Below, one piece after another: positions 11,810-24,135 of a DNA stretch of 44,983 nucleotides (position 1 is its first letter; every line of letters begins with the position of its first letter). The stretch comes from Escherichia phage KS_S9. The translations under genes and the position numbers were made by a program. Location: sequence record PP920551.1; one strand, written 5' to 3'. The notes beneath the pieces are model-generated. The model was not told the DNA's origin, ran no database searches, and worked only from the letters and a program-made list of their open reading frames with translations.

Positions 11810-14452
11810 ATGGCAGATCAGGCAGCGGGCATCACGCTCAAGGCGGACGCCGCGCAAATTAAAACGGCTAATACTGTGCTGGACACATTTGCGCAGAAAT
11901 CCGAGAACACAGAACAGAAAGTAAAGAAATTAAACGACACACTCGGCAAGTCGAAAAAGGTTACTGGCGACGCCGCGGGCGGAATGGAAAAGTTAGCGAC
12001 TGAATCGCAGCGCGCCGCCGACGGCATGACGAAACAGGAGCGACTCGCCAGCCGATTAGGCATGTCGACCAAAAACCTGGGATTCGCATCGCGGAACGCC
12101 GCATTCCAGTTACAGGATATCGCGGTTACGCTAGAGATGGGTATGCCGGTGCACCGCGTTATGCTTCAGCAGCTACCTCAGCTTACTGGGGCGTTTGGCG
12201 GACTGGGTAACACGCTGCGCTATGTTGCGGGCTTTCTCGGCCCAGTGGGGATCGGACTTGCTGCCGTAACGGCGACGTTAGGCGTAGGGGTGGCAATTAC
12301 GACCCGCGCAGAGAACCAAGTGGCGGCGCTTAATAAGACGCTGGCGCTGTCCGGTAATATTTCGGGCCTCACAGCTAACCAGATCCTTGTGCTGTCCGAG
12401 AACGCTGAGCGCATGGGCGGGTCATTTCGCAAGACGCGCGACACAATCCAGGCGCTGGCGGCGGCGGGTGTGAAAGCGGGTGGTGACTTCGGCGCATTGG
12501 CTAAGGTAGTTAATGACTTTGCGAAGGTGTCCAGCCAGCCGATCGAGGATGTGGTAGCGGCGGTGGCGAAGCTGTCAACCGACCCCGTTGGCGGACTGCG
12601 TGCGCTGGCGGATAAGTATCACGTCGTAAACGAAGCGCAGATCCAGCAGGTACAGTCGCTCGTTGATGCGGGTCGTGAGACAGACGCAGTTGCGTTGGCT
12701 AACAAAACAGCCGCTGCGTCGTTCACCAGCATGACCAATGAGATCAAGGCGAACATGGGTACGCTTGAGCGGTCGATGAACGTCGTCACATCGGCAGCCA
12801 AATCGATGTGGGACGCTATCCTGGATGTGGGTCGCGCGCAGTCCTCCAATGAATCCGAGATGAAAGCGCGCGAATCACTGCAGCGGCTGACCACGGCTTA
12901 CTATGCCGAGATGAAAGCGGTAAACGCTGCCGGTGGGGTAATGACTGAAGCGCAGAAAGCACGTATTAACATGCTTTACAGCGAACTGGTCGCCCAGGAA
13001 AAAGTGGTGGCGTCGCTAACCCTGCGTAACCGTGCTGAGCGAGACAACGCCCGCGCCGCAGACGAATCCGCAAAGGCGAACGAGGAGGCCAACCGCACTG
13101 CCCGTGACCGCGCCGCGTTCGAGAAGGAATACGCCACCAACGCTAAGAAGCGCGCCGACGAGATCGCCCGCCTCAATTTGCTGAATAAGCGCGGCGTTAT
13201 TGATGAGAAAGAACTAGCCGAGGCGGTGAAGCAGGTAAACGAGCGGTACAAAGACCCAGCCCCGAAAAAGGCCGCGGCTGTTCGCGTGGATGCCGGTATG
13301 AAAATGCTGGAAGTCGCACGGAGCGAACTGGCCCAGCTTCGAGAATCCGGCAAGCAGATCGAAGCCAACGCGTCTACGCAGACCCGCACGCAACGCGCTC
13401 AAGCGGCCTTAAACAAGCTGATCGCCGACAATGAGCAGTTAATCGCTGCGAGCAAAGAAAGAGCACTAACGGCAGCAGAAAAGCAGCAATTAGTCGAGTT
13501 CGGGCGCGTGAAGGAAGTCCGCGAGCAGATCGTCGAAGAAGCCAAATTGCTGGATGCGAAAGAGCAGCAGGTTAAGGCGCACGCGCAGATCGATGCCTTC
13601 GTTAAGAACCAGAACGCCGAACTAAAAGCCACCGCCGCGGGGTATGCGCTTTCCACTCGCGAAGCGGCAAACCTGCGTGAAGAATTGCAGCTAATTGACC
13701 GCCTGAAGCGGGTTGGCGCTAACGATACCGATATTGACAAGGCGGTGTCTAAGCTGCGAGAAGTGCAGGAAGCACAGACCGGCGCTAACGCCACGTTATG
13801 GGATGGATTCAGTCGCGGGCTTAAGGATAGCGTGGATGAAATGGGTAACGGATATACGCAGATGGCGTCGCTCACGAAATTTACATTCAGCGCTATGCAG
13901 GACACGATGAACGAGTTTTTCGAGACTGGTAAGCTGAACGCAAAGGATATGGTTAAGTCCATCCTGAGCGAATTAATCAAGCTGGCTACCTCGCAGGCGT
14001 TCAAGTCCATCGTTAGCGCTTTCGGTGGCGACGGCGGCAAAAACGGATTGTTCGGCGCTATCTTCTCTGGCCTTACTAAGAATGCGGACGGCGGAGCGTA
14101 CGCAGGCGGCAATCTCGCGGCCTATTCGGGGAAAGTGGTAAGCCAGCCTACCTTTTTCAGTTATGGCGTCCAGGCGTTCGCTAAGGGCGCTGGGTTGATG
14201 GGTGAGGCTGGACCCGAGGCCATCATGCCACTGAAGCGCGGGCCTGACGGGAAACTGGGCGTTGCCGCGTCTGGCGCAGGCGGTGGTATGGTCGTGACGA
14301 CTAACGTTTACACGGGGACCGGTAAAACGGATACCAGTGTCAGCGGGCCGGACCCACGTACCGCGCAGGCGTTCGGCAAGCAAATCACCGAGGCGGTGAA
14401 GGCCGAGATCGTGAAGGCGACGAAACCGGGTGGTGTACTTTACAAACGATGA
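11810..14452 (+). CDS. Tail tape measure protein
   Basis: 880 aa, Ala/Gln/Glu-rich helical protein with hydrophobic segment and Gly-rich C-terminus; follows G/GT chaperone. Confidence 0.9.
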   Translation: MADQAAGITLKADAAQIKTANTVLDTFAQKSENTEQKVKKLNDTLGKSKKVTGDAAGGMEKLATESQRAADGMTKQERLASRLGMSTKNLGFASRNAAFQLQDIAVTLEMGMPVHRVMLQQLPQLTGAFGGLGNTLRYVAGFLGPVGIGLAAVTATLGVGVAITTRAENQVAALNKTLALSGNISGLTANQILVLSENAERMGGSFRKTRDTIQALAAAGVKAGGDFGALAKVVNDFAKVSSQPIEDVVAAVAKLSTDPVGGLRALADKYHVVNEAQIQQVQSLVDAGRETDAVALANKTAAASFTSMTNEIKANMGTLERSMNVVTSAAKSMWDAILDVGRAQSSNESEMKARESLQRLTTAYYAEMKAVNAAGGVMTEAQKARINMLYSELVAQEKVVASLTLRNRAERDNARAADESAKANEEANRTARDRAAFEKEYATNAKKRADEIARLNLLNKRGVIDEKELAEAVKQVNERYKDPAPKKAAAVRVDAGMKMLEVARSELAQLRESGKQIEANASTQTRTQRAQAALNKLIADNEQLIAASKERALTAAEKQQLVEFGRVKEVREQIVEEAKLLDAKEQQVKAHAQIDAFVKNQNAELKATAAGYALSTREAANLREELQLIDRLKRVGANDTDIDKAVSKLREVQEAQTGANATLWDGFSRGLKDSVDEMGNGYTQMASLTKFTFSAMQDTMNEFFETGKLNAKDMVKSILSELIKLATSQAFKSIVSAFGGDGGKNGLFGAIFSGLTKNADGGAYAGGNLAAYSGKVVSQPTFFSYGVQAFAKGAGLMGEAGPEAIMPLKRGPDGKLGVAASGAGGGMVVTTNVYTGTGKTDTSVSGPDPRTAQAFGKQITEAVKAEIVKATKPGGVLYKR

Positions 14453-14486
14453 TAAAATGGCCCTCACTACAACGTGGGGGCTTTTT

Positions 14487-15086
14487 ATGTCACAAGGTAC
14501 AATCACACTAACGAAAGGAAGTAAGACCGTCACGGGCGCGGGAACGGCGTTCCTTAGCGAGATCGGGAAGGTACTCGTATTCGCCCGCATCGACGGCAAC
14601 GACTACACCGGAAAAATTGCGGCATTCAACTCGAACACGGTCATTACTCTGAAAGATAACTGGGCCGGTCCGACGAAATCCGGTGCGGCATATGAGCTAA
14701 TCGAAGCACACGACCCGCGATCAAACGAATGGCCCTATTACTGGCACATGCAATTGCAAGGCGGCGGAGACGTGCAGTTGTCTTTCCGGTCCGAGGAATT
14801 GCAATTTGGTAACGGTTACGGTCAGAACATCGCAGACGGCCCGAACGCCGAGACGAAACAGTTTCCCATGCAGTTCATCGGACTGACTACTGACAAGTGG
14901 TGCGACCCCAAACTGGTTTACAACTTCCTTCGCGGGCACTTCGTCAAGCCGTTTGTCGTCACCGCGCCGGATGGCGAAACAGGTTTATTCGTGGTCGAGC
15001 GTTCGAGCTTGTCGTACACGGACAACGGGCACAACACGGCAACGGTATCCGCCACCCTTAAGACTGCTATTGGATTCGTAAGATGA
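14487..15086 (+). CDS. Minor tail protein (lambda gpM-position)
   Basis: 199 aa from ATG 14487 (GGGGG upstream); directly after tape measure; N-terminal ~70 aa resemble the N-terminus of the tail fibre at 21970. Confidence 0.55.
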   Translation: MSQGTITLTKGSKTVTGAGTAFLSEIGKVLVFARIDGNDYTGKIAAFNSNTVITLKDNWAGPTKSGAAYELIEAHDPRSNEWPYYWHMQLQGGGDVQLSFRSEELQFGNGYGQNIADGPNAETKQFPMQFIGLTTDKWCDPKLVYNFLRGHFVKPFVVTAPDGETGLFVVERSSLSYTDNGHNTATVSATLKTAIGFVR

Positions 15087-15871
15087 ATAAACTCTATCGA
15101 GAAGCGACGCGCTTTGACCCATCAGGACGCGTTCGCCTGATTCACATTGACGCTCAGGACGTGGAACCAGGCGACGGCGCGATCGGAGCGGGGCATCACT
15201 ATTTTCACTACTGCTTTATTCCGCACACTGCCGAGGATATTGCTGCCGCCGGTGGTGACGAGGATAAGCTAAAACCTAAATCAATCTTCTTCGGCGGGCA
15301 GGAGTTCGAATTTTGGCCCTTCGATTTGTCCGGCCTTAACTTCTCCACATCGACGGCGGCAGAACCGCAACTAACAATCGTCGATATTGGCGGCATAATA
15401 ACCCGGCTGTCGCTGAACCACGACCAGCTACTTGGCGCGAAGGTTGAGATCATTGATACGTTCGCGAAGTTCCTGGATAACGGGACAGATCCAGACCCGA
15501 CGCAGAAACGAGTTCAGGAGTATTACATCGACTCGCAGGTCGGGCGCAATCCGGGCAAGCAAATTACCTTCGCACTATCCTCGCCTGCGGATATGGAAGG
15601 GCAGGTCGTTCCCCGTCGCCAAATCATGAATATGTGCGAGTGGGCGCTCAACGGGAAGTACGCCAGCGGGGACGGGTGCACCTGGAACCTTGCGAAGCCT
15701 GGGATCAAGTATTACGACGAGCGAGGTAATGAAGTCATCGCGATGAACATGGACCGATGCGGCGGCTGTTTGTCAGACTGTTATCTTCGATTTGGGCAAG
15801 GGCTTGCGGACCCGAAAGCGGCGGTGCTGGACTTCGGCGGCTTTCCTGGGTCCAGATTAATTAAGGGGTAG
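15083..15871 (+). CDS. Minor tail protein (lambda gpL-like)
   Basis: 262 aa; C-terminal Cys cluster (CEW...GDGC...DRCGGCLSDC) as in gpL-type proteins; position M-L-K-I-J. Confidence 0.75.
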   Translation: MNKLYREATRFDPSGRVRLIHIDAQDVEPGDGAIGAGHHYFHYCFIPHTAEDIAAAGGDEDKLKPKSIFFGGQEFEFWPFDLSGLNFSTSTAAEPQLTIVDIGGIITRLSLNHDQLLGAKVEIIDTFAKFLDNGTDPDPTQKRVQEYYIDSQVGRNPGKQITFALSSPADMEGQVVPRRQIMNMCEWALNGKYASGDGCTWNLAKPGIKYYDERGNEVIAMNMDRCGGCLSDCYLRFGQGLADPKAAVLDFGGFPGSRLIKG

Positions 15872-15873
15872 CC

Positions 15874-16614
15874 ATGTTAACGAAAAAGGTTAAAAGCGAT
15901 ATCGCCGCGCACGTTGCGGCATGTCTGCCGGAAGAAGCCTGTGGGTTGGTAGTCATGGTGGGTCGCAAGCAAGTATTCGTACCATGTCAGAACGTATTCG
16001 AAGACCCGACCGGCGTGCGCTCACGCAAAGACGCGTTTACTATTAGTGATATGGCCTGGATGGATGCCGAGGATATGGGCGACGTCGTGCGCGTAGTCCA
16101 CTCGCATCCTGGCCAGCGCGAGCTTACCCCATCACTGGGCGACGTTAACGGATGCAACGGCAGTGGCGTCGTCTGGACCATCACTAACGAATATGGCGAC
16201 TTTATCGAGATCGACCCGGAAGACCCGCCGCTGGTAGGCCGCCGATTTGTTCTCGGGGTTACTGACTGTTACGGCCTCGTCATGGCATGGCACAAAAAGC
16301 AGGGCGTAAACCTGCCAGACTTCCGCGTGCCGTATAACTGGTGGGAGACAGGCGAAAATCTGTATATGGATAACTGGTACGGCGCGGGCTTCAGGGAATG
16401 CGAGGCGAATACGCCGGGGGCGATGGTTATCATGCAGATCAGCGCGCCAGTGCCTAACCATGCTGGGATATTCCTTCCGGGCAACCAACTACTACACCAT
16501 ATCTACGGCAGCCTGTCGAGCGTGATACCCTTCCGATCAGGATTTTTCCGGGACAATGTGGTTAAATGGGTACGTCATAAAGACCTACCAGGGAATATAA
16601 CAGAATGGCAATGA
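15874..16614 (+). CDS. Tail assembly protein (lambda gpK-like, JAB/MPN + NlpC/P60-like)
   Basis: 246 aa; HSHP metal-binding motif (VVRVVHSHPGQ) typical of JAMM/MPN domains; gene order. Confidence 0.75.
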   Translation: MLTKKVKSDIAAHVAACLPEEACGLVVMVGRKQVFVPCQNVFEDPTGVRSRKDAFTISDMAWMDAEDMGDVVRVVHSHPGQRELTPSLGDVNGCNGSGVVWTITNEYGDFIEIDPEDPPLVGRRFVLGVTDCYGLVMAWHKKQGVNLPDFRVPYNWWETGENLYMDNWYGAGFRECEANTPGAMVIMQISAPVPNHAGIFLPGNQLLHHIYGSLSSVIPFRSGFFRDNVVKWVRHKDLPGNITEWQ

Positions 16615-17222
16615 CCACATTTAAATTATACGGCGTTTTAGGACGTCGATTCGGTAAAGTGCATAAGCTGGACTGCTTCACTCCGGGCGAGGGTATTACC
16701 GGCCTGTGCGTGAAGTTACCCGGCTTACAGGACTTTCTAATGTCGGCCCACCTTGACAATATGATGTTCAAGGTGCGCAAAGGCGACCACACGATGACCG
16801 GCTATGATGAGCTGGGTGAGTTCCACGGCAACCGCGTCGTCACCATCGCGCCGGTTATGACGGGTGCAAAAAGAGGTCTGGGCCAATTGCTGGCGGGTGT
16901 GGCAATAGTGGTGGCGTCGTTCTACACCGGCGGACTTGCTACTGCCGCTTTTGGGGCTTCGGCGGCGACCGCTGCCGCTATCGGGACGGCGACGTTTTCA
17001 TTCGGGATGTCGATGGCGCTGGGTGGCGTTATGCAATTGCTATCTCCGCAACCGAAAGGGTTGCAGACACGGCAGGATGTGGATAATAAGGCGTCGTATG
17101 CGTTCGGCGGGCCTGTAAACACGACCGCGCAAGGTACAGCACTTGGTGTATTATGGGGTGAGCGTGAGATCGGCGGCGCTATTATTTCCGCCGGAATCGT
17201 AACCGAGGACTTGAACGAATGA
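16605..17222 (+). CDS. Tail assembly protein (lambda gpI-like)
   Basis: 205 aa with Gly/Ala-rich hydrophobic C-terminal half; overlaps K and J genes (ATGA overlap with J). Confidence 0.65.
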   Translation: MAMTTFKLYGVLGRRFGKVHKLDCFTPGEGITGLCVKLPGLQDFLMSAHLDNMMFKVRKGDHTMTGYDELGEFHGNRVVTIAPVMTGAKRGLGQLLAGVAIVVASFYTGGLATAAFGASAATAAAIGTATFSFGMSMALGGVMQLLSPQPKGLQTRQDVDNKASYAFGGPVNTTAQGTALGVLWGEREIGGAIISAGIVTEDLNE

Positions 17223-20200
17223 CGATTATCTACGACGTCACAGGGCATAAAGGCGGCGGCGGCAAACAGCACACCCCACAGGAGACGCCAGACAGCCTGC
17301 ATTCGCTGGCTAAAATCCGCATCTTGCTTGCGCTGGGGGAAGGGGAATTCGAAAGTATTACCAGCGCCAGCGAATTGCGGCAGCGTGTTTACTTGGATGG
17401 AACGCCGATCCAGAACGCTGACCTGTCCGAAAACTTCCCTGGCGCGCGTGTGGAGTTCCGCCCCGGCACACAGCACCAGGATGTGATCCACGGATTTTCA
17501 GCGGTGGAAAGTGAGCAATCTGTCGGCGTAAAACTGGAAAACGGCACGCCGTGGGTGCGCCAGATTAACGATACCAGTCTGGACGCTGTTCGCATTCGCA
17601 TCGGCATTCCAGCCCTGTACACTAACGAAGATAATGGCGACCTGGTGGGCGGGCGCATCGACTATAAGATCGTTGTGTATACGGATAACGCCGACCCGCG
17701 TGAGTTCAGATTCGCCGCCGTTGGTAAAACAATGTCGCTATATGAGCGCGACCACCGCATCGAATTACCTCCGAACGTTAACACCGGCTGGCGCGTTGAG
17801 GTGCACCGCATAACGGCAGACTCCACATCGGCGAAAGTGGTTAATGATATCCGGGTGCAGTCCATCACTGAGATTATTGACGCCCGCCTGCGTTACCCGC
17901 TAACCGCGCTGTTGTTTGTGGAGTTCGACGCCAAAGCGTTCCAGAACATCCCGCGCGTGTCCATTAAGTGCAAAGGTCGCAAAGTTCTAATACCGAACAA
18001 CTACGACCCGATCAATCATACCTATTCCGGGGACTGGGACGGCACGTTTAAACGCGCATGGACGGATAACCCAGCGTGGCACTGGTACGATATTTGTATT
18101 ACTGAGCGCTTCGGCCTCGGTCGGCGTATCAAACCGCAAATGTTAAACCGGTACGCGCTCTACCAGATTGCGCAGCGCTGCGATCAGTTGGCCAGCGACG
18201 GCAACGGTGGTCGAGAAATCCGATTTAAGAATGATATGTACATTCAGTCACAGACGGATGCCTGGACAGTGCTTAAGGATTTAGCCGCCATCTTCGCCGG
18301 AATGACCTGGTGGGGCAACCAGATGTTGAATATCGTCAGTGACCAACCGGTCGCAGCAGTGTCGCACACTATCACCAACGCCTCGGTAATTGATGGTCGA
18401 TTCGACTACGCATCTGGCAGCCAGAAAACTCGCTATTCCACATTTGCGGTAGCATACGGCAACCCGAAGAACCACTATGAAGATGCCATCGCAACGGGGC
18501 AGCGCGTCGAACTTGTACGCCGCCATAAGATTAACCGTCTTGATATTACGGCGATCGGCTGTACGCGTGAATCTGAAGCGCAACGCCGCGGGCACTGGGC
18601 GCTAATTTCCAACCAGCTTGACCAGCAAGTTAGCTTTAAAGTTGGCATGGAAGGGTTATTCTTTATTCCCGGTAGCGTAGTCGCGATCGCGGATACAAAC
18701 ATTTCTGGCGGTTTTGAGACGCGCGGCGGTCGACTGTTGTCGGACCCCGGAACGCGTACCGTGCTGAACACGGACAGCGAAATCACATTCCGCCCTGGCG
18801 ATAAGTTCCTGGTGCGCACCGATAGCGGTAATGTGGAGACTCGCGAGATCGCCAGCGTCAACGGCAACAAGGTAACGCTAAAAACCGCACTGGACGCCAA
18901 CCCTATTCCAGACCAACCGTTTTGCGTTGACGGGGATGATATCCAGTTGCAAAAATTCCGCATCACCGATCTGGAATATGACGACTCTACGAGCACTTTC
19001 TCGGTGCGCGGGATTGAATACAACGATAGCAAATATGATGCCGTTGATAATGGCGCGCGCCTAGACCCGGGCATCTTTACGCAAGTGCCTGACGGGGTAA
19101 TGAAGGGGCCGGAATCCGTGACCATCACCCCGTCGCAGATTTCATCGCAAGGACAGCTAATCACCAACGTGGATATTGTTTTCCCGCCGGTGAAGGACGC
19201 CGTGGTGTATGAAATCCAGTGGCGACGCACCAGCTTGCAGAATATGGAAATCCAGTGGGGTAACGACTGGGTGAATATCCCGCGCACGGCATCGAACGGT
19301 GCGCACATCCCTAACGTGTTCTCAGGTAACTACCAGGCACGCGTCCGCGCAATTGGCATGGGCGAAATCTCGTCACCGTGGGTGTCTTCCGCAATCACGC
19401 CAGTTGAAGGTCGCCTCGGCGGTCTTAACGCGCCTATCATCACCAACGCGATTTCGGGCCTCCACCAGATCTTGTGGAAGTGGAACCACAACAACGCCGC
19501 TACGGATATTTCGTACACCGAGCTTGAAGTGCGCAAGACCGGTGAGACTGAATGGAAATTCCTTACCAACGTCCCATATCCGGGGGCGGAGTATGCGCAA
19601 ACATCGCTGGAGTTCGGAATTTACCAGCAGTTGCGCGCCCGTGTAGCGGATAAAATCGGCAACCTGTCGGACTGGTCGGCCCCGTTTGAAGGGCAGGTGA
19701 GTGACAAAGTTGACGAGTACATGAAGGGGCTTGATGACGAGTTCTTGACTTCCGAGGATGGTAAACGCTTCCAGGAAGCAATCAACACGATCCCGCAGGG
19801 TATTTACGAGGCGATGCTCACCGATGCGCAGCAATTGTTCAACGCCCGCGCTGAGTACAAGGGTATTTATGCGGAAATCTCGGTCGCGTATAACGTGGCG
19901 GCGGACGCCCACAAGGCGGTAGCGCAACTGGAAACGTTGATCGGCACTCGTCTTGACGATGCTGAAGCGGCAATCCACACGTTGCAGACGGCGCAGAGTA
20001 CGCAGGAACAGGCGTTCGCACAGTACCAGCAAACTGTTGCCGCTAAGTTTTCTGAACAGGAAGCCGCCATCCAGCAGGTACAAACGGCAACTGCGGACGT
20101 AGCGGGCGCGCTGGCTGAGTACAAGACCCATGTTGCGGCGCAGTTCGGTCAGCAGTCCGCCGCGATCGAGCAGAAGATGACGTCCTCGTTTAACCACTCT

Positions 20201-20638
20201 GGTGGTAGCGCAACTTACAGCCTTAAGGCTGGCGTGACGTATAACGGGACTTACTATGACGCTGGTATGCAGCTTTCAGTTGTGACGTCTGGCAGCGCGG
20301 TTAAATCTAGTATCGCGTTCAAAGCCGACCAGTTCTATATCATGCACCCGTCAAATGGGTCGCTTTCGTCCGCGTTTATCGTTGACGGCGGGCAGGTGTA
20401 TATTGACACGGCACGCATCAAGGACGCGTCAATCAACTTTGCACAGATCACGGACACGCTGCAATCGAATAACTACGACGGCAGTACGCGTGGTTGGCGC
20501 TTAGGGAAAGACGGAACGTTTATCAACCTGGGGACTGGAAGCGGCGGCGGGATGAAACAGACGAACACAAGAATCAGCGTGAAGGACGGAAACGGCGTTC
20601 TCCGCGTGCAGATTGGTGAGCTTACTGGTAGCTGGTAG
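17219..20638 (+). CDS. Tail tip attachment / host specificity protein (lambda gpJ-like central fibre)
   Basis: 1139 aa; largest tail ORF after the K/I genes, followed by terminator. Confidence 0.85.
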   Translation: MTIIYDVTGHKGGGGKQHTPQETPDSLHSLAKIRILLALGEGEFESITSASELRQRVYLDGTPIQNADLSENFPGARVEFRPGTQHQDVIHGFSAVESEQSVGVKLENGTPWVRQINDTSLDAVRIRIGIPALYTNEDNGDLVGGRIDYKIVVYTDNADPREFRFAAVGKTMSLYERDHRIELPPNVNTGWRVEVHRITADSTSAKVVNDIRVQSITEIIDARLRYPLTALLFVEFDAKAFQNIPRVSIKCKGRKVLIPNNYDPINHTYSGDWDGTFKRAWTDNPAWHWYDICITERFGLGRRIKPQMLNRYALYQIAQRCDQLASDGNGGREIRFKNDMYIQSQTDAWTVLKDLAAIFAGMTWWGNQMLNIVSDQPVAAVSHTITNASVIDGRFDYASGSQKTRYSTFAVAYGNPKNHYEDAIATGQRVELVRRHKINRLDITAIGCTRESEAQRRGHWALISNQLDQQVSFKVGMEGLFFIPGSVVAIADTNISGGFETRGGRLLSDPGTRTVLNTDSEITFRPGDKFLVRTDSGNVETREIASVNGNKVTLKTALDANPIPDQPFCVDGDDIQLQKFRITDLEYDDSTSTFSVRGIEYNDSKYDAVDNGARLDPGIFTQVPDGVMKGPESVTITPSQISSQGQLITNVDIVFPPVKDAVVYEIQWRRTSLQNMEIQWGNDWVNIPRTASNGAHIPNVFSGNYQARVRAIGMGEISSPWVSSAITPVEGRLGGLNAPIITNAISGLHQILWKWNHNNAATDISYTELEVRKTGETEWKFLTNVPYPGAEYAQTSLEFGIYQQLRARVADKIGNLSDWSAPFEGQVSDKVDEYMKGLDDEFLTSEDGKRFQEAINTIPQGIYEAMLTDAQQLFNARAEYKGIYAEISVAYNVAADAHKAVAQLETLIGTRLDDAEAAIHTLQTAQSTQEQAFAQYQQTVAAKFSEQEAAIQQVQTATADVAGALAEYKTHVAAQFGQQSAAIEQKMTSSFNHSGGSATYSLKAGVTYNGTYYDAGMQLSVVTSGSAVKSSIAFKADQFYIMHPSNGSLSSAFIVDGGQVYIDTARIKDASINFAQITDTLQSNNYDGSTRGWRLGKDGTFINLGTGSGGGMKQTNTRISVKDGNGVLRVQIGELTGSW

Positions 20639-20641
20639 TAT

Positions 20642-20661
20642 GGGGGCTTCGGCCCCTTTTT
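20642..20661 (+). terminator. Intrinsic terminator after J-like gene
   Basis: GGGGC-ttcg-GCCCC followed by TTTTT. Confidence 0.55.
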
Positions 20662-20674
20662 AACGAGGTTATTT

Positions 20675-20977
20675 ATGGCATTCGGTATCGCAACGTGGGA
20701 CGCGCAAGGACGCCCAAACAACTACGGCATTAAACCGGTAAGCGTGATCGGAAGGATTCATCTTGCGGAAGGACAAAAATCAGGCGCATGGTCATTCCCT
20801 GTACCGGCGGGGATGAAGGTCGGATACGTGGTCGCACTGGATAAAGGCGCGGTCGGGCCAGGACGCAGAATCACCGCCAGCGGGAACACTATCACGGTTT
20901 CCGCAGCAAGTGAGGTTGGTGGCGGGGTTTACTCCGCATCTGAATGTGACGTTATTGTTTTTGTGGAGCGAGCATAA
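20675..20977 (+). CDS. Hypothetical protein
   Basis: 100 aa, GAGG RBS, ATG 20675; downstream of J-like gene; no signal peptide seen. Confidence 0.45.
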   Translation: MAFGIATWDAQGRPNNYGIKPVSVIGRIHLAEGQKSGAWSFPVPAGMKVGYVVALDKGAVGPGRRITASGNTITVSAASEVGGGVYSASECDVIVFVERA

Positions 20978-21651
20978 TGGCTAATTACGGCGCGTTGATT
21001 GACTTACCAAACGGCAACCCGTTTATCACGCCAGAATCGACGCCGTTTTGTCTATTCCGCCGTGTGGTTGTTGGGTCTTCGGCTAACGGCACTGCGCAGT
21101 CGGCGGCTGCCGATATTAATTTGGGAGGTGACTACCCTGCAATAGCGTTTGTGAAAACTACGCACACCGCCCAGCCGACCGTCGTAGGGTCTTCTCGCGT
21201 TGGTAATGTGGTGAAGGTGAGCGCCAGCAATCCATTCAGGCAGGGCTTCACGATGACGGCTTACATCTTTGCTATATTCCCACAGACCCTTCCGCGGTGG
21301 GGCTTCGCTATCTGGGATAAGACGGGGAAGCTAGTGCTTACTAATGAGAGTCGCGTACTAAGTGATTTAGTTACCGTCGGATCGCCAGGCGCTAACGGGG
21401 GGATTAACATTGACCAGACGCTAAACGGCAGCTACGCCGTCGCTCCGGGCATATTGGGGTCTACGCTGATCCGGTTTTTTGTGCAGGGCCAGCCGCAAGT
21501 AATATCAGTAACGGCGTACACGGGGGCCAGATTTGATGGGTCGCGAACGCGTATATCGGCAGCGTCGTCGGGGAACGCCACGGGGGGTGTGGTGGGGTAT
21601 ACTAACAACGGCAACGCGATTATGGCGATTAACACCGCCAATTATGATTGA
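20977..21651 (+). CDS. Hypothetical protein (possible tail-associated)
   Basis: 224 aa, TAATG overlap with preceding gene; Gly/Ser/Thr-rich; no family recognised. Confidence 0.45.
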   Translation: MANYGALIDLPNGNPFITPESTPFCLFRRVVVGSSANGTAQSAAADINLGGDYPAIAFVKTTHTAQPTVVGSSRVGNVVKVSASNPFRQGFTMTAYIFAIFPQTLPRWGFAIWDKTGKLVLTNESRVLSDLVTVGSPGANGGINIDQTLNGSYAVAPGILGSTLIRFFVQGQPQVISVTAYTGARFDGSRTRISAASSGNATGGVVGYTNNGNAIMAINTANYD

Positions 21652-21653
21652 AG

Positions 21654-21676
21654 AAAGCCCCGAAAGGGGCTTATTT
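21654..21676. terminator. Bidirectional terminator between 20977..21651 (+) and lipoprotein gene (-)
   Basis: AAGCCCC-gaaa-GGGGCTT hairpin, T-rich on both sides. Confidence 0.5.
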
Positions 21677-21889
21677 GCAGGTTGTGCTTTTGAAGTGGTC
21701 GACCGACACATACTGGAAGTTGAACGGATACCCAGCCTTGAGCATTTTGTGTCCACTAAAGTCGGCAACCCCAAACACCGGGACCGAGTATTCCATGCCG
21801 CTATTAACATATGTCGCGTCGCAGACTTTAGTCGGCATGTTGGCACAACCAGACAAAAGAACCGCACAAATCATAATTAAAGTTTTCAT
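21671..21889 (-). CDS. Small outer-membrane lipoprotein, Cor-like superinfection exclusion candidate
   Basis: 72 aa from ATG 21889 (GGGGA RBS): signal peptide MKTLIMICAVLLSGC with lipobox LSGC; opposite strand, between tail-tip genes and tail fibre. Confidence 0.55.
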   Translation of the reverse strand: MKTLIMICAVLLSGCANMPTKVCDATYVNSGMEYSVPVFGVADFSGHKMLKAGYPFNFQYVSVDHFKSTTCK

Positions 21890-21969
21890 GGTATCATCCC
21901 CTATATTTGGTTGAGTTTTAGTATTACACCGCTCAACCAGGATTGCAACCAATTTAAGAGGATTTAGCT

Positions 21970-24135
21970 ATGGCAGCGGGTACGCTATCCGTAACGAACA
22001 ACAGCAAGGCGGTAGTAGGAGTCGGCACAACGTTTACCGCGTTCAAGGCTGGCGACTTCTTATCGCTGGTGGTGGGGCAAGTGCCTTACACCGTGGCGAT
22101 CGCATCAATTGAAAGTAACACGGCGCTTACGCTGGTGCTGCCGTTCGACGGCCCAACGGCAACCGGCCTCGCGTGGGATGGCGTTAAGCGCGATACCATG
22201 TCGCTGGCGACGATGGGCGTTACCGTACAGGCCCAAAAAGCATTGCGCTTGATGATTGCAGACGAAAACAACTGGCGTGCAATCTTCGGTGACGCTGAAG
22301 AAATCACAGTGACGTTACCTAACGGGCAAGTCATGCAGGGGATGTCATGGGGCTACCTGTCGGAATTGCTTAAGAACGTAGACCCCGTTGAGATGCGCGA
22401 CCTCGCAGCGCAAGCCGAAGCATCGAAATCCGCAGCGCAAGGATTTCGGGATGAGGCCGAGGAGTGGGCGCAAAGCGTTAACGCGGATAACCTGCTAACC
22501 AAATCCGGCAACCTGGCAGGACTCACCGACAAACCGCAAGCCTGGCTTAACGTTCGACCAGACGGGGCAACGCCATTGGCGGGCGACCCTGTAGGTGACT
22601 ACGACGCCGCGACAAAGCGCTGGGTGCAGAACCTTATCAACGGGGGCACGGTTGGCCCTACAATGAACGGCGTCATGAACTATGGCGTAGGCGACTTCCA
22701 TTTACGGGACAGCCGCGCGTATATTCAACCTTACGAAGTCGTATCCGACGGGCAACTTCTTAACCGCGCGGATTGGCCTGAGTTGTGGGCGTATGCGCAA
22801 ATGCTGTCGCCAATTAGTGACGCTACCTGGCTGGCTAACCCAAATCAGCGCGGCAAGTATTCTACGGGTGACGGCACAACGACCTTCCGAGTGCCCGACC
22901 GTAACGGCGTTCAGCCTGGGTCCATATTCGGCTTGTTCGGCAGGGGTGACGGCGGGCAAAGTGGCAACGATGGGTATATCTACGAATCAGGAGCACCTAA
23001 CATCACCGGCCGCATCGAGATACACGGCGGCGGGGCCGCGAGTATTATCAACCTTGAAAGTGGCGCGTTCCAGGGGGCCGGCGGTGCGGCTTCGCAATAT
23101 CGATCGCCAGGCGGGCTAACTGTTAGTAACGGCGCTGTCTCCTACGGCGTCATTAACATGGACGCCTCGAAGGTCAGCGCGATCTATGGCCGGACCGTAT
23201 CGGAGTTGCGCCCGAATAACTTCATGGGCGTGTGGGTGATCCGCGCATCTGGTGGATTTGTTGCCGCGAATACGTCGTGGTCAGTAATCAACGGCGACGC
23301 CACTAAACCACCAGCGGGCACTACGGTAGACGGCGGAAGCATTGTGTCTGAATACCGTGTTGGTACTTCTTTACACGCGGAAGCAAAGCTGCGCGTACGT
23401 GCGAATATCGACGGTGAGACTTACGCCCGCCTGGCGATCACTAACCTGGAGACGGCGCAGAGTTCTGGCATCGACTTTAACACCAAAGGCGAGATGACCT
23501 TGCCGGGCAAGTTTACGGTGAACAGTTCAGGGTCAGATGTCGTCGGCAGTCTGACAGTCAGCCGGGGGGCATACATACAAATAGGGATGCGACCATATTA
23601 CACCGTAGGCGACCCTGTGCCGGATGACGTTGTGGGCGGCCAGACGTTCTTCGAACCGGCACTAGATAAGTCTGGCACTCGATATTTTCGCCTGTTTATG
23701 CGACGTAAGGATGGGAACCGTACCGGCGAAATTATGCTTAACTTCCCGACTACCGCATCGGGGACTATCGCGCTGCAAGGCACATCAGGCCGCGAGTATA
23801 AGAAAGATATTGCCGATGCGGACGCAAGCGAGGCTATGGACCGCATTAACGGCCAGCGCCTTGTTAACTTCGTGTATAAGGATGATGAGCAGGCCCGCCA
23901 GCGCTTCGGTATTATCGCCGAGGAAGCGGAGTTAATTGCGCCGCAGTACGTTAAACACCACGAGTTCCCGATCGAGGATATTCTCGACGAAGACGGCAAC
24001 AAGATCGGGGAGAAGATGACGGACCGCCCATCCATCGACGTTAACCCGATCGTAATGGACTTGATGGGGTGTGTTCAATATCTCAATAAGCAGGTGGAGG
24101 ATTTGAAGGCCGAGATCGCGGCGTTGAAGAAATAA
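21970..24135 (+). CDS. Tail fibre protein with C-terminal intramolecular chaperone (peptidase S74-like) domain
   Basis: 721 aa; Gly-rich middle; C-terminal ~115 aa start near SGREYKKDI, resembling the autocleavage motif of fibre chaperone domains; AAGAGG RBS. Confidence 0.75.
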   Translation: MAAGTLSVTNNSKAVVGVGTTFTAFKAGDFLSLVVGQVPYTVAIASIESNTALTLVLPFDGPTATGLAWDGVKRDTMSLATMGVTVQAQKALRLMIADENNWRAIFGDAEEITVTLPNGQVMQGMSWGYLSELLKNVDPVEMRDLAAQAEASKSAAQGFRDEAEEWAQSVNADNLLTKSGNLAGLTDKPQAWLNVRPDGATPLAGDPVGDYDAATKRWVQNLINGGTVGPTMNGVMNYGVGDFHLRDSRAYIQPYEVVSDGQLLNRADWPELWAYAQMLSPISDATWLANPNQRGKYSTGDGTTTFRVPDRNGVQPGSIFGLFGRGDGGQSGNDGYIYESGAPNITGRIEIHGGGAASIINLESGAFQGAGGAASQYRSPGGLTVSNGAVSYGVINMDASKVSAIYGRTVSELRPNNFMGVWVIRASGGFVAANTSWSVINGDATKPPAGTTVDGGSIVSEYRVGTSLHAEAKLRVRANIDGETYARLAITNLETAQSSGIDFNTKGEMTLPGKFTVNSSGSDVVGSLTVSRGAYIQIGMRPYYTVGDPVPDDVVGGQTFFEPALDKSGTRYFRLFMRRKDGNRTGEIMLNFPTTASGTIALQGTSGREYKKDIADADASEAMDRINGQRLVNFVYKDDEQARQRFGIIAEEAELIAPQYVKHHEFPIEDILDEDGNKIGEKMTDRPSIDVNPIVMDLMGCVQYLNKQVEDLKAEIAALKK

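Follow-up and report, generated by a model that had tools for sequence, protein, structure and literature searches.

The stretch of Escherichia phage KS_S9 DNA analysed here (PP920551.1; the whole of its 44,983 nucleotides is referred to as the window) encodes two proteins that open with the same small domain, namely a gpM-type distal tail protein (DTP) of 199 amino acids, starting at 14487, and a lateral tail fibre of 721 amino acids, starting at 21970. We consider it probable that gpM is a normal ring subunit of the tail tip which carries an accessory, peripheral barrel of the fibre-anchor type, and that it is neither fibre-like itself nor the obligatory dock of the fibre. The parts of the two proteins are as follows.

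14487-15086, plus strand: gpM or DTP, 199 residues; ATG at 14487, in the open reading frame right after the tape measure gene
14487-14726, plus strand: N-terminal module of gpM, residues 1-80; predicted beta-barrel of the fibre-anchor family with a short linker, aligning to fibre residues 1-73
14727-15086, plus strand: DTP ring domain of gpM, residues 81-199 plus stop codon; Pfam Phage_min_tail (PF05939)
21970-24135, plus strand: lateral tail fibre, 721 residues; ATG at 21970, C-terminal Peptidase_S74 intramolecular chaperone
21970-22188, plus strand: N-terminal barrel of the fibre, residues 1-73; virion-anchor module according to an AlphaFold2 (AF2) model and profile homology to residues 5-73 of the F2-pyocin side fibre
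22189-22419, plus strand: stem helix of the fibre (residues 74-105), then a beta-hairpin and two short helices (residues 106-150), as seen in the AF2 model
22420-24135, plus strand: distal part of the fibre, residues 151-721, including Peptidase_S74 (PF13884) at residues 607-662, nucleotides 23788-23955

An earlier note on this DNA had drawn attention to a similarity of the G-T-x.../GPT type between the starts of the proteins at 14487 and 21970. Both coordinates are right and both sequences are present; BLASTP joins residues 1-73 of gpM to residues 1-73 of the fibre in a single ungapped alignment having 25 of 73 positions identical (34%), 55% positives and, following composition correction, an E-value of 1e-8. 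Gly, Thr, Ser, Ala and Val are abundant in both segments, as might be expected were the resemblance due to chance or composition, but the Smith-Waterman score of the module pair, 106, lies 16-17 standard deviations above that of composition-preserving shuffles (26 +/- 5; z = 16-17) and was reached by none of 5000 of them (Gumbel p ~3e-10). The similarity thus passes the comparison with shuffled controls by which the note had proposed to judge it. For the full-length proteins the shuffle test gives z = 11.6. A hidden Markov model (HMM) of the module, searched against all six frames of the window, finds exactly two copies, those in gpM and the fibre, and PHROG tail-fibre profiles match the N-termini of both proteins, those matching the gpM module being PHROGs 17834, 28473 and 1980. 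Profile searches, furthermore, recover family members in their thousands, which show the same pattern of motifs. Since shuffles, HMM, PHROG profiles and composition-corrected BLASTP all agree, the similarity is beyond chance and not compositional, and we give the contrary explanation a virtually negligible probability. Judged from their sequences, the two N-termini are homologous copies of one module. The DNA of the two module stretches is 45% identical; the relationship is therefore old and visible only at the level of protein.

The remainder of gpM is that of an ordinary distal tail protein. PF05939 matches residues 86-193 with a score of 43.5 bits, compared to a cut-off of 39, and covers profile positions 5-106 of 108. 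Further matches are to the minor tail protein of phage T1 (9l9p_H, E 3.5e-12) and to the 'MF2 protein' of F2-pyocin (25vf_6). Over its full length gpM is approximately 95% identical to PDB chain 23gd_B, deposited as 'Distal tail protein gp20' in an entry that contains two gp20 chains, one gpL chain ('Hub protein gp21') and one gpJ chain ('J-like tail tip protein gp24'). This stoichiometry fits a 6:3:3 tip if 23gd represents one asymmetric unit of a C3 structure. A tblastn search matches 23gd_B at 100% identity with the bas18_0020 gene of phage Oekolampad (Bas18), and the gene numbers 20, 21 and 24, together with the locus tags, fit the Oekolampad genome. Aeromonas phage Avs-1, whose gp20 was considered as the source of 23gd, was ruled out by an alpha-helical extension and different PDB codes; a search of the literature on entry 23gd found no paper describing it. 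The nearest gpM homologues outside the group (54-64% identity) have 122-125 residues and consist of the ring domain alone. Since PF05939 is confined to residues 86-193, 23gd_B matches throughout and these homologues are ring-only, the protein at 14487 is best described as a minimal lambda-type DTP with an N-terminal extension of approximately 80 residues. Its gene adjoins the 3' end of the tape measure gene and precedes those for gpL, gpK, gpI and gpJ, which is the position expected of gpM.

These results bear on the suggestion of the earlier note that the protein at the M position may itself be fibre-like, or a second fibre. It does start with a fibre-type anchor module. Against this, a gpM ring domain scoring above the Pfam threshold makes up the other 60% of the protein, the 95%-identical protein is entered in the PDB as a distal tail protein, two chains of it for each gpL or gpJ chain, and module-less homologues at the same gene position are ordinary gpM proteins of 122-125 residues. 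The barrel of gpM, moreover, runs directly into the ring domain at about residue 84: the stem helix is absent, as are a shaft and a receptor-binding part. We therefore abandon the fibre-like interpretation, whose probability we put at very little indeed. The gpM frame is open upstream of the ATG as far as a GTG at 14430, and this extra segment (14430-14486) begins inside the final part of the tape measure gene. Some database records begin gpM at the upstream start (212-218 residues). The ATG at 14487 is favoured because of the deposited structure and a family-wide 'M-x-x-G-T' N-terminus.

In the fibre, the module is followed by the segment at 22189-22419, which is 95-98% conserved among Dhillonviruses, with a ratio of non-synonymous to synonymous substitution rates (dN/dS) of 0.04. 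Among Dhillonvirus fibres it is the first ~135 residues that are conserved, in agreement with Maffei et al. Residues 165-720 (22462-24132) match the L-shaped tail fibre of the T5-like phage DT57C (8hqz_d, residues 520-1073, E 5e-204), but the N-terminal anchors of the two fibres differ, which suggests that Dhillonviruses and T5-like phages swap the receptor-binding parts that lie downstream of the anchor. The phages Teewinot (L012:17487-18227) and Maverick (L014:9757-10272) have fibres shortened to ~246 and 162-171 residues, respectively; these keep the anchor barrel and stem with no distal part, and the N-terminal module of gpM is intact in both phages.

An AF2 model of fibre residues 1-150, built from a 95-row alignment, has a confidence (pLDDT) of 92.7. 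It contains strands at residues 5-8, 14-18, 30-35, 38-47, 52-55 and 64-72; a long helix (74-105) comes next, and then a hairpin and a pair of short helices. The module is a six-stranded beta-barrel domain of approximately 70 residues and, from its homology, the gpM copy would also be such a barrel.

When a profile made from the two copies was compared with 1.84 billion representative proteins, the E <= 0.001 threshold was reached by 3796 clusters (50% identity), of which 482 also passed E <= 1e-10; a word-indexed protein search with the 80-residue module alone gave no matches. Among 153 top family members fetched, 124 carry just one copy, placed at the very N-terminus, and are of fibre size (median length ~400 residues). 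Tandem arrays of up to 13 copies occur in 27 fetched proteins of 378-2894 residues, most of them longer than 1000, and three of four such proteins scanned with Pfam contain PKD or Peptidase_C25 domains. In arrays of this kind (P0011, P0012, P0013, P0027, P0033 and P0035) the module has ~65 residues and some repeats weakly match Pfam Phage_attach (lambda gpFII), mostly below threshold. None of the Pfam and NCBIfam models scanned covers the module. In the phage collection it opens the fibres of HK225 and of Salmonella, Erwinia, Aeromonas and Pseudomonas phages. The combination of module and gpM ring in one protein is found in 157 of 50,697 phage records, all of them at least 80% identical to Oekolampad gp20 and belonging to the Dhillonvirus group; likewise, among 159 fetched proteins only the Dhillonvirus gpM matches have both.

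Against solved structures, a 39-sequence profile of the module finds 23gd_B (residues 1-76, E 2.6e-21) and the F2-pyocin side fibre 25ve_A (residues 5-73, E 1.7e-15); gpM alone matches the latter with E ~1e-4 over residues 2-80. On this profile evidence the module and the 'OB' domain with which F-type pyocin side fibres begin are homologues. These particles have been visualised by electron cryo-microscopy in three independent studies (PMC13455828; bioRxiv 10.64898/2026.02.24.707460; PMC12874032). Three side-fibre trimers attach, by the N-terminal OB domain (residues 2-76) and stem helices, to a kinked, acidic stretch of the coiled coil of the central fibre; each trimer takes part with two of its three protomers, and the resulting six barrels form a pseudo-sixfold ring. 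The OB domains of PyoF13, PA0643 and PA0646 (25ve, 25vj) belong to the same sequence family as the module and occupy residues ~2-76. The order in PyoF13 of OB domain, stem and helix-turn-helix (PMC13455828) is like the barrel, stem helix and short helices of the window fibre. The earlier note's idea of an attachment domain is thereby borne out as far as the fibres are concerned. The DTPs differ, however: that of F-pyocins (113 residues) lacks the module, while that of Dhillonviruses has a second copy, devoid of the stem helix, fused to it.

The gpM module was not derived recently from the fibre of its own genome. It is 44-48% identical to the 'MSAGTLTLTNNS'-type fibre anchors of other enterobacterial phages and 34-36% identical to its own-genome fibre, whose type ranks below 115 of 239 modules. 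As the DNA identity is 45% and the anchors of other phages are closer, we regard the module as an old capture rather than an intragenomic copy. A recent duplication or gene conversion that placed the 5' end of the fibre gene onto gene M, or the reverse, might seem to be indicated by the location of the two copies in one genome and on one strand, at exact N-termini in both cases and in ungapped alignment. It is opposed by the low identity (45% nucleotide, 34% amino acid), by the nearer kinship of the gpM copy to anchors of other lineages and by the separate conservation of each copy across more than 150 Dhillonvirus records, and we consider it highly improbable. The note had envisaged a domain exchanged by recombination; a recent exchange between these two genes finds no support.

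Evolutionary rates and covariation were compared in 11 module-bearing Dhillonviruses. Mean pairwise divergence and, where calculated, dN/dS were as follows.

gpM module: 13.3%, dN/dS 0.19
gpM ring: 4.1%, dN/dS 0.04
gpL: 2.5%
gpJ: 5.5%
fibre barrel: 7.7%, dN/dS 0.09
fibre stem: 4.8%, dN/dS 0.04

The gpM module is the most variable tail-tip segment in this set, evolving ~3-5 times faster than the ring, and has 36 variable sites in 80, compared to 18 in 119 for the ring. These substitution patterns indicate that the module is functional and under purifying selection, yet far less constrained than the ring. Module and fibre anchor gave no signal of covariation above background linkage: the divergence of the module has a Spearman correlation of 0.32 with that of the fibre barrel, as against 0.56 with that of the ring. 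In bov11C2, for example, the module is 71% identical and the fibre barrel 96% identical.

Nature has also provided relatives in which the gpM module is missing. L002 and L003, two Dhillonviruses from metagenomes, resemble the window closely: identity is 97-99% for tail terminator, tube, tape measure, gpK and gpI, 95% for gpJ and 95-97% for the fibre anchor. Between these regions of similarity, a stretch that starts at the end of the tape measure gene and reaches into that for gpL is replaced, L002:10001-11609 and L003:5772-7380 corresponding to window positions 14450-15871. Their gpM has 123 residues, is 63% identical and lacks the module. The gpL of L002-L005 has 415 residues with a 150-residue insertion, which in L002 and L003 is clean, lying between residues 56 and 59 of Oekolampad gpL, and which weakly matches the 'Megatron' protein of roseophage R4C (8gtc_M, residues 497-617, E 1.6e-4). 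The more distant L001 and L004 likewise combine a gpM without the module and a fibre with it. A plain gpM with an inserted gpL, on the one hand, and a barrel-bearing gpM, on the other, look like two alternative ways of decorating the periphery of the tip. The note had proposed a common attachment domain; a docking partner shared by gpM and fibre finds no support, for near-identical phages keep the fibre anchor in company with a module-less gpM. This comparison of sequences strongly suggests that the gpM module is dispensable for fibre attachment. That a near-identical anchor works with a different, barrel-less DTP argues that it binds something else that is conserved, for which gpJ is the obvious candidate because of the pyocin analogy, the pyocin central fibre being a strong homologue.

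The genomic setting is as follows. The approximately 10 kb around the two genes have 94% DNA identity to the Escherichia phages Envy, Sloth, Opt212 and JLBYU37, and match 169 phage records, nearly all of them from Escherichia or Shigella phages or from named Dhillonviruses; the window is from an Escherichia Dhillonvirus. The tail-tip genes have the lambda-like order of tape measure, M, L, K, I and J, followed by two small genes and then the 721-residue fibre. The neighbours of gene M and the fibre gene are listed here.

11810-14452, plus strand: tape measure protein; Pfam TMP_2 and Tape_meas_lam_C; defines the 'M position'
15083-15871, plus strand: gpL-type hub protein; Pfam Phage_tail_L; matches 23gd_C, 'Hub protein gp21'
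15874-16614: gpK
16605-17222: gpI
17219-20638, plus strand: gpJ-type central fibre; Pfam FNIII-A_GpJ, Phage-tail_3 and Phage_Tail_Tip; matches 23gd_D

The gpL protein is the site of the alternative accessory insertion in its homologues from L002-L005. Internal repeats of ~32 residues, AQYQQTVAAKFSEQEAAIQQ and AEYKTHVAAQFGQQSAAIEQ among them, are present in the gpJ shaft; the gpJ homologue of L001 (L001:12513-15770) lacks two 32-residue blocks, and shaft length seems to vary by whole blocks. The small genes between gpJ and the fibre, at 20675-20977 and 20977-21651, match phrog_557 ('outer membrane protein') and phrog_425 ('membrane associated protein'), respectively. Homologues in the FhuA-dependent Dhillonvirus JLBYU60 have been proposed, in an in silico study, to be unrecognised receptor-binding parts on the gpJ tip (PMC12309495). 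At the same position other Dhillonviruses, Oekolampad among them, have a different pair on the reverse strand, encoding a receptor-binding protein and a lipoprotein.

We propose that the barrel and stem helix of the 721-residue lateral fibre together form its virion anchor. By homology with the side fibres of F-type pyocins, the anchor most likely clamps fibre trimers onto the tail tip, probably onto the coiled-coil shaft of gpJ. The latter protein matches the F2-pyocin central fibre (25vf_A) with E 6e-224, and its alpha-helical shaft, at approximately residues 830-990 (nucleotides 19706-20188), offers a candidate site at which the side fibre would dock. The presumed hexameric gpM ring under the last tube disc should show six barrels on its outer rim, because in Ur-lambda the N-terminus of gpM is exposed and its residues K2 and W6 are touched by the Stf collar (PMC12617516); for the same reason a domain fused to that N-terminus should sit at the level of the lambda and T5 collars. 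The gpM barrel would have been captured long ago from a fibre-anchor lineage other than that of the present fibre. It appears losable, a cassette of plain gpM and domain-inserted gpL being able to replace it with the fibre anchor unchanged, and may be considered an accessory tip decoration, of the kind that the DTPs of T5, Chi and JBD30 have in their OB-like domains. As to its job, our guess, by analogy, is that it most likely provides additional contacts, either to the surface of the cell or to other parts of the virion.

Several points weigh against this proposal. The position and contacts of the gpM barrel are predicted ones, and single-sequence AlphaFold modelling of the 199-residue gpM was unusable (pLDDT 36). 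The shaft residues at the docking kink of F2-pyocin, ~950-961, fall in a stretch without an aligned counterpart in gpJ, so that the site could not be transferred and the place where the Dhillonvirus fibre docks is one that we infer. The gpL insertion of L002-type phages could act as a substitute dock. Finally, six gpM barrels and six fibre barrels add up to a 12-member collar, as in lambda and T5, which keeps the docking hypothesis alive.

The last of these points leads to a different arrangement, in which the six gpM barrels are a docking platform on which the fibre barrels interleave or stack. With two fibre barrels per trimer, for instance, as in F-pyocins, a mixed ring of ~12 members would result at the junction of tube and tip, which would be equivalent in function to the collar that Stf forms as a 12-mer in Ur-lambda, or to that formed by p132 in T5. 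The homology of the gpM and fibre modules is in keeping with this, as is the self-assembly of six such barrels into a pseudo-sixfold ring in F-pyocins (PMC13455828). The fibres of Ur-lambda and T5 do hang from 12-member collars at this level, that of lambda touching the N-terminus of gpM (PMC12617516), and both copies are kept in all 11 of the module-bearing Dhillonviruses examined, including those whose fibres are truncated to the anchor. The comparative data argue otherwise. The L002 and L003 fibre anchors remain 95-97% identical alongside a module-less gpM of 63% identity, the same combination recurring in L001 and L004; the two copies do not covary, as bov11C2 (71% versus 96%) illustrates; and the gpM module is the fastest-evolving part of the tip while the fibre stem is among the most conserved. 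Furthermore, experiments described in the three F-pyocin papers show homologous anchors to dock on the central-fibre shaft and not on the DTP. On balance, a gpM platform for the fibre is unlikely. A specific form of it, in which six gpM barrels and six fibre barrels (two from each of three trimers) co-assemble as a mixed 12-member collar with one half hard-wired in the DTP, we hold to be a little more doubtful again. If true, it would be a mode of fibre attachment unseen in lambda, T5 or F-pyocins, made by copying the fibre's own anchor onto the ring.

The reading we prefer, that of an accessory barrel on a normal ring subunit, places gpM among the decorated DTPs, since it has both the ring domain and an additional peripheral barrel. 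The corresponding domains of JBD30 were termed OB domains by its authors (PMC11445458), and the F2-pyocin paper notes that the side-fibre OB domain resembles the decorating domain of T5 DTP. The barrels of T5 pb9 (domain B, 4jmq), Chi DTP (8vjh) and JBD30 gp49 (domains V and VI, 8rk3) are C-terminal or inserted, however, and belong to much larger DTPs, while the Dhillonvirus barrel precedes the ring of a minimal lambda-type gpM and is related in sequence to fibre anchors. No sequence or profile match at E <= 1 was seen between the module and the chains of 4jmq, 8vjh and 8rk3. The resemblance thus appears to lie at fold level only, the sequences giving no indication that the decorating domains share a common descent.

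The collars formed by Stf in Ur-lambda, p132 in T5 and LtfC in DT57C are also composed of small beta domains that hold side fibres at the level of the tube and DTP, and the lambda collar contacts the gpM N-terminus at the very point where the Dhillonvirus barrel is fused (PMC12617516). They differ in belonging to another sequence family, described as an immunoglobulin-like six-strand sheet plus helix, and in having 12 free-standing or fibre-borne copies, compared with six covalently attached ones in the Dhillonvirus DTP. A relationship of the module to the N-terminal domain of lambda Stf or the T5 p132 collar domain was considered and rejected, searches with module, gpM and fibre giving no sequence match to them. 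Likewise, the resemblance to the N-terminal particle-binding domains of tailspikes and depolymerases (phi297 gp61, AP22 gp54, K64-1 S2-4, KP34p57 and phi92 gp150) is at fold level only; these phages have other tail types than the window phage, and other partner proteins.

OB-decorated DTPs, N-terminal fibre anchors and a deposited structure of a 95%-identical DTP were already known, and no new principle is involved. What is new is a gpM-type DTP decorated with a barrel of the fibre-anchor type, a variant that combines two known things. The module family is large and unannotated, and is among the commonest fibre-anchor domains of phages and tailocins. Recognising it would improve the annotation of fibre genes and mark the end of the virion-binding part of the fibre, a boundary needed for swapping receptor-binding parts between phages or pyocins. 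The natural cassette swap seen in L002 and L003 is a clean, ready-made experiment on the role of peripheral tip decorations, and the Dhillonvirus DTP shows that a fibre anchor can be recruited onto a ring protein.

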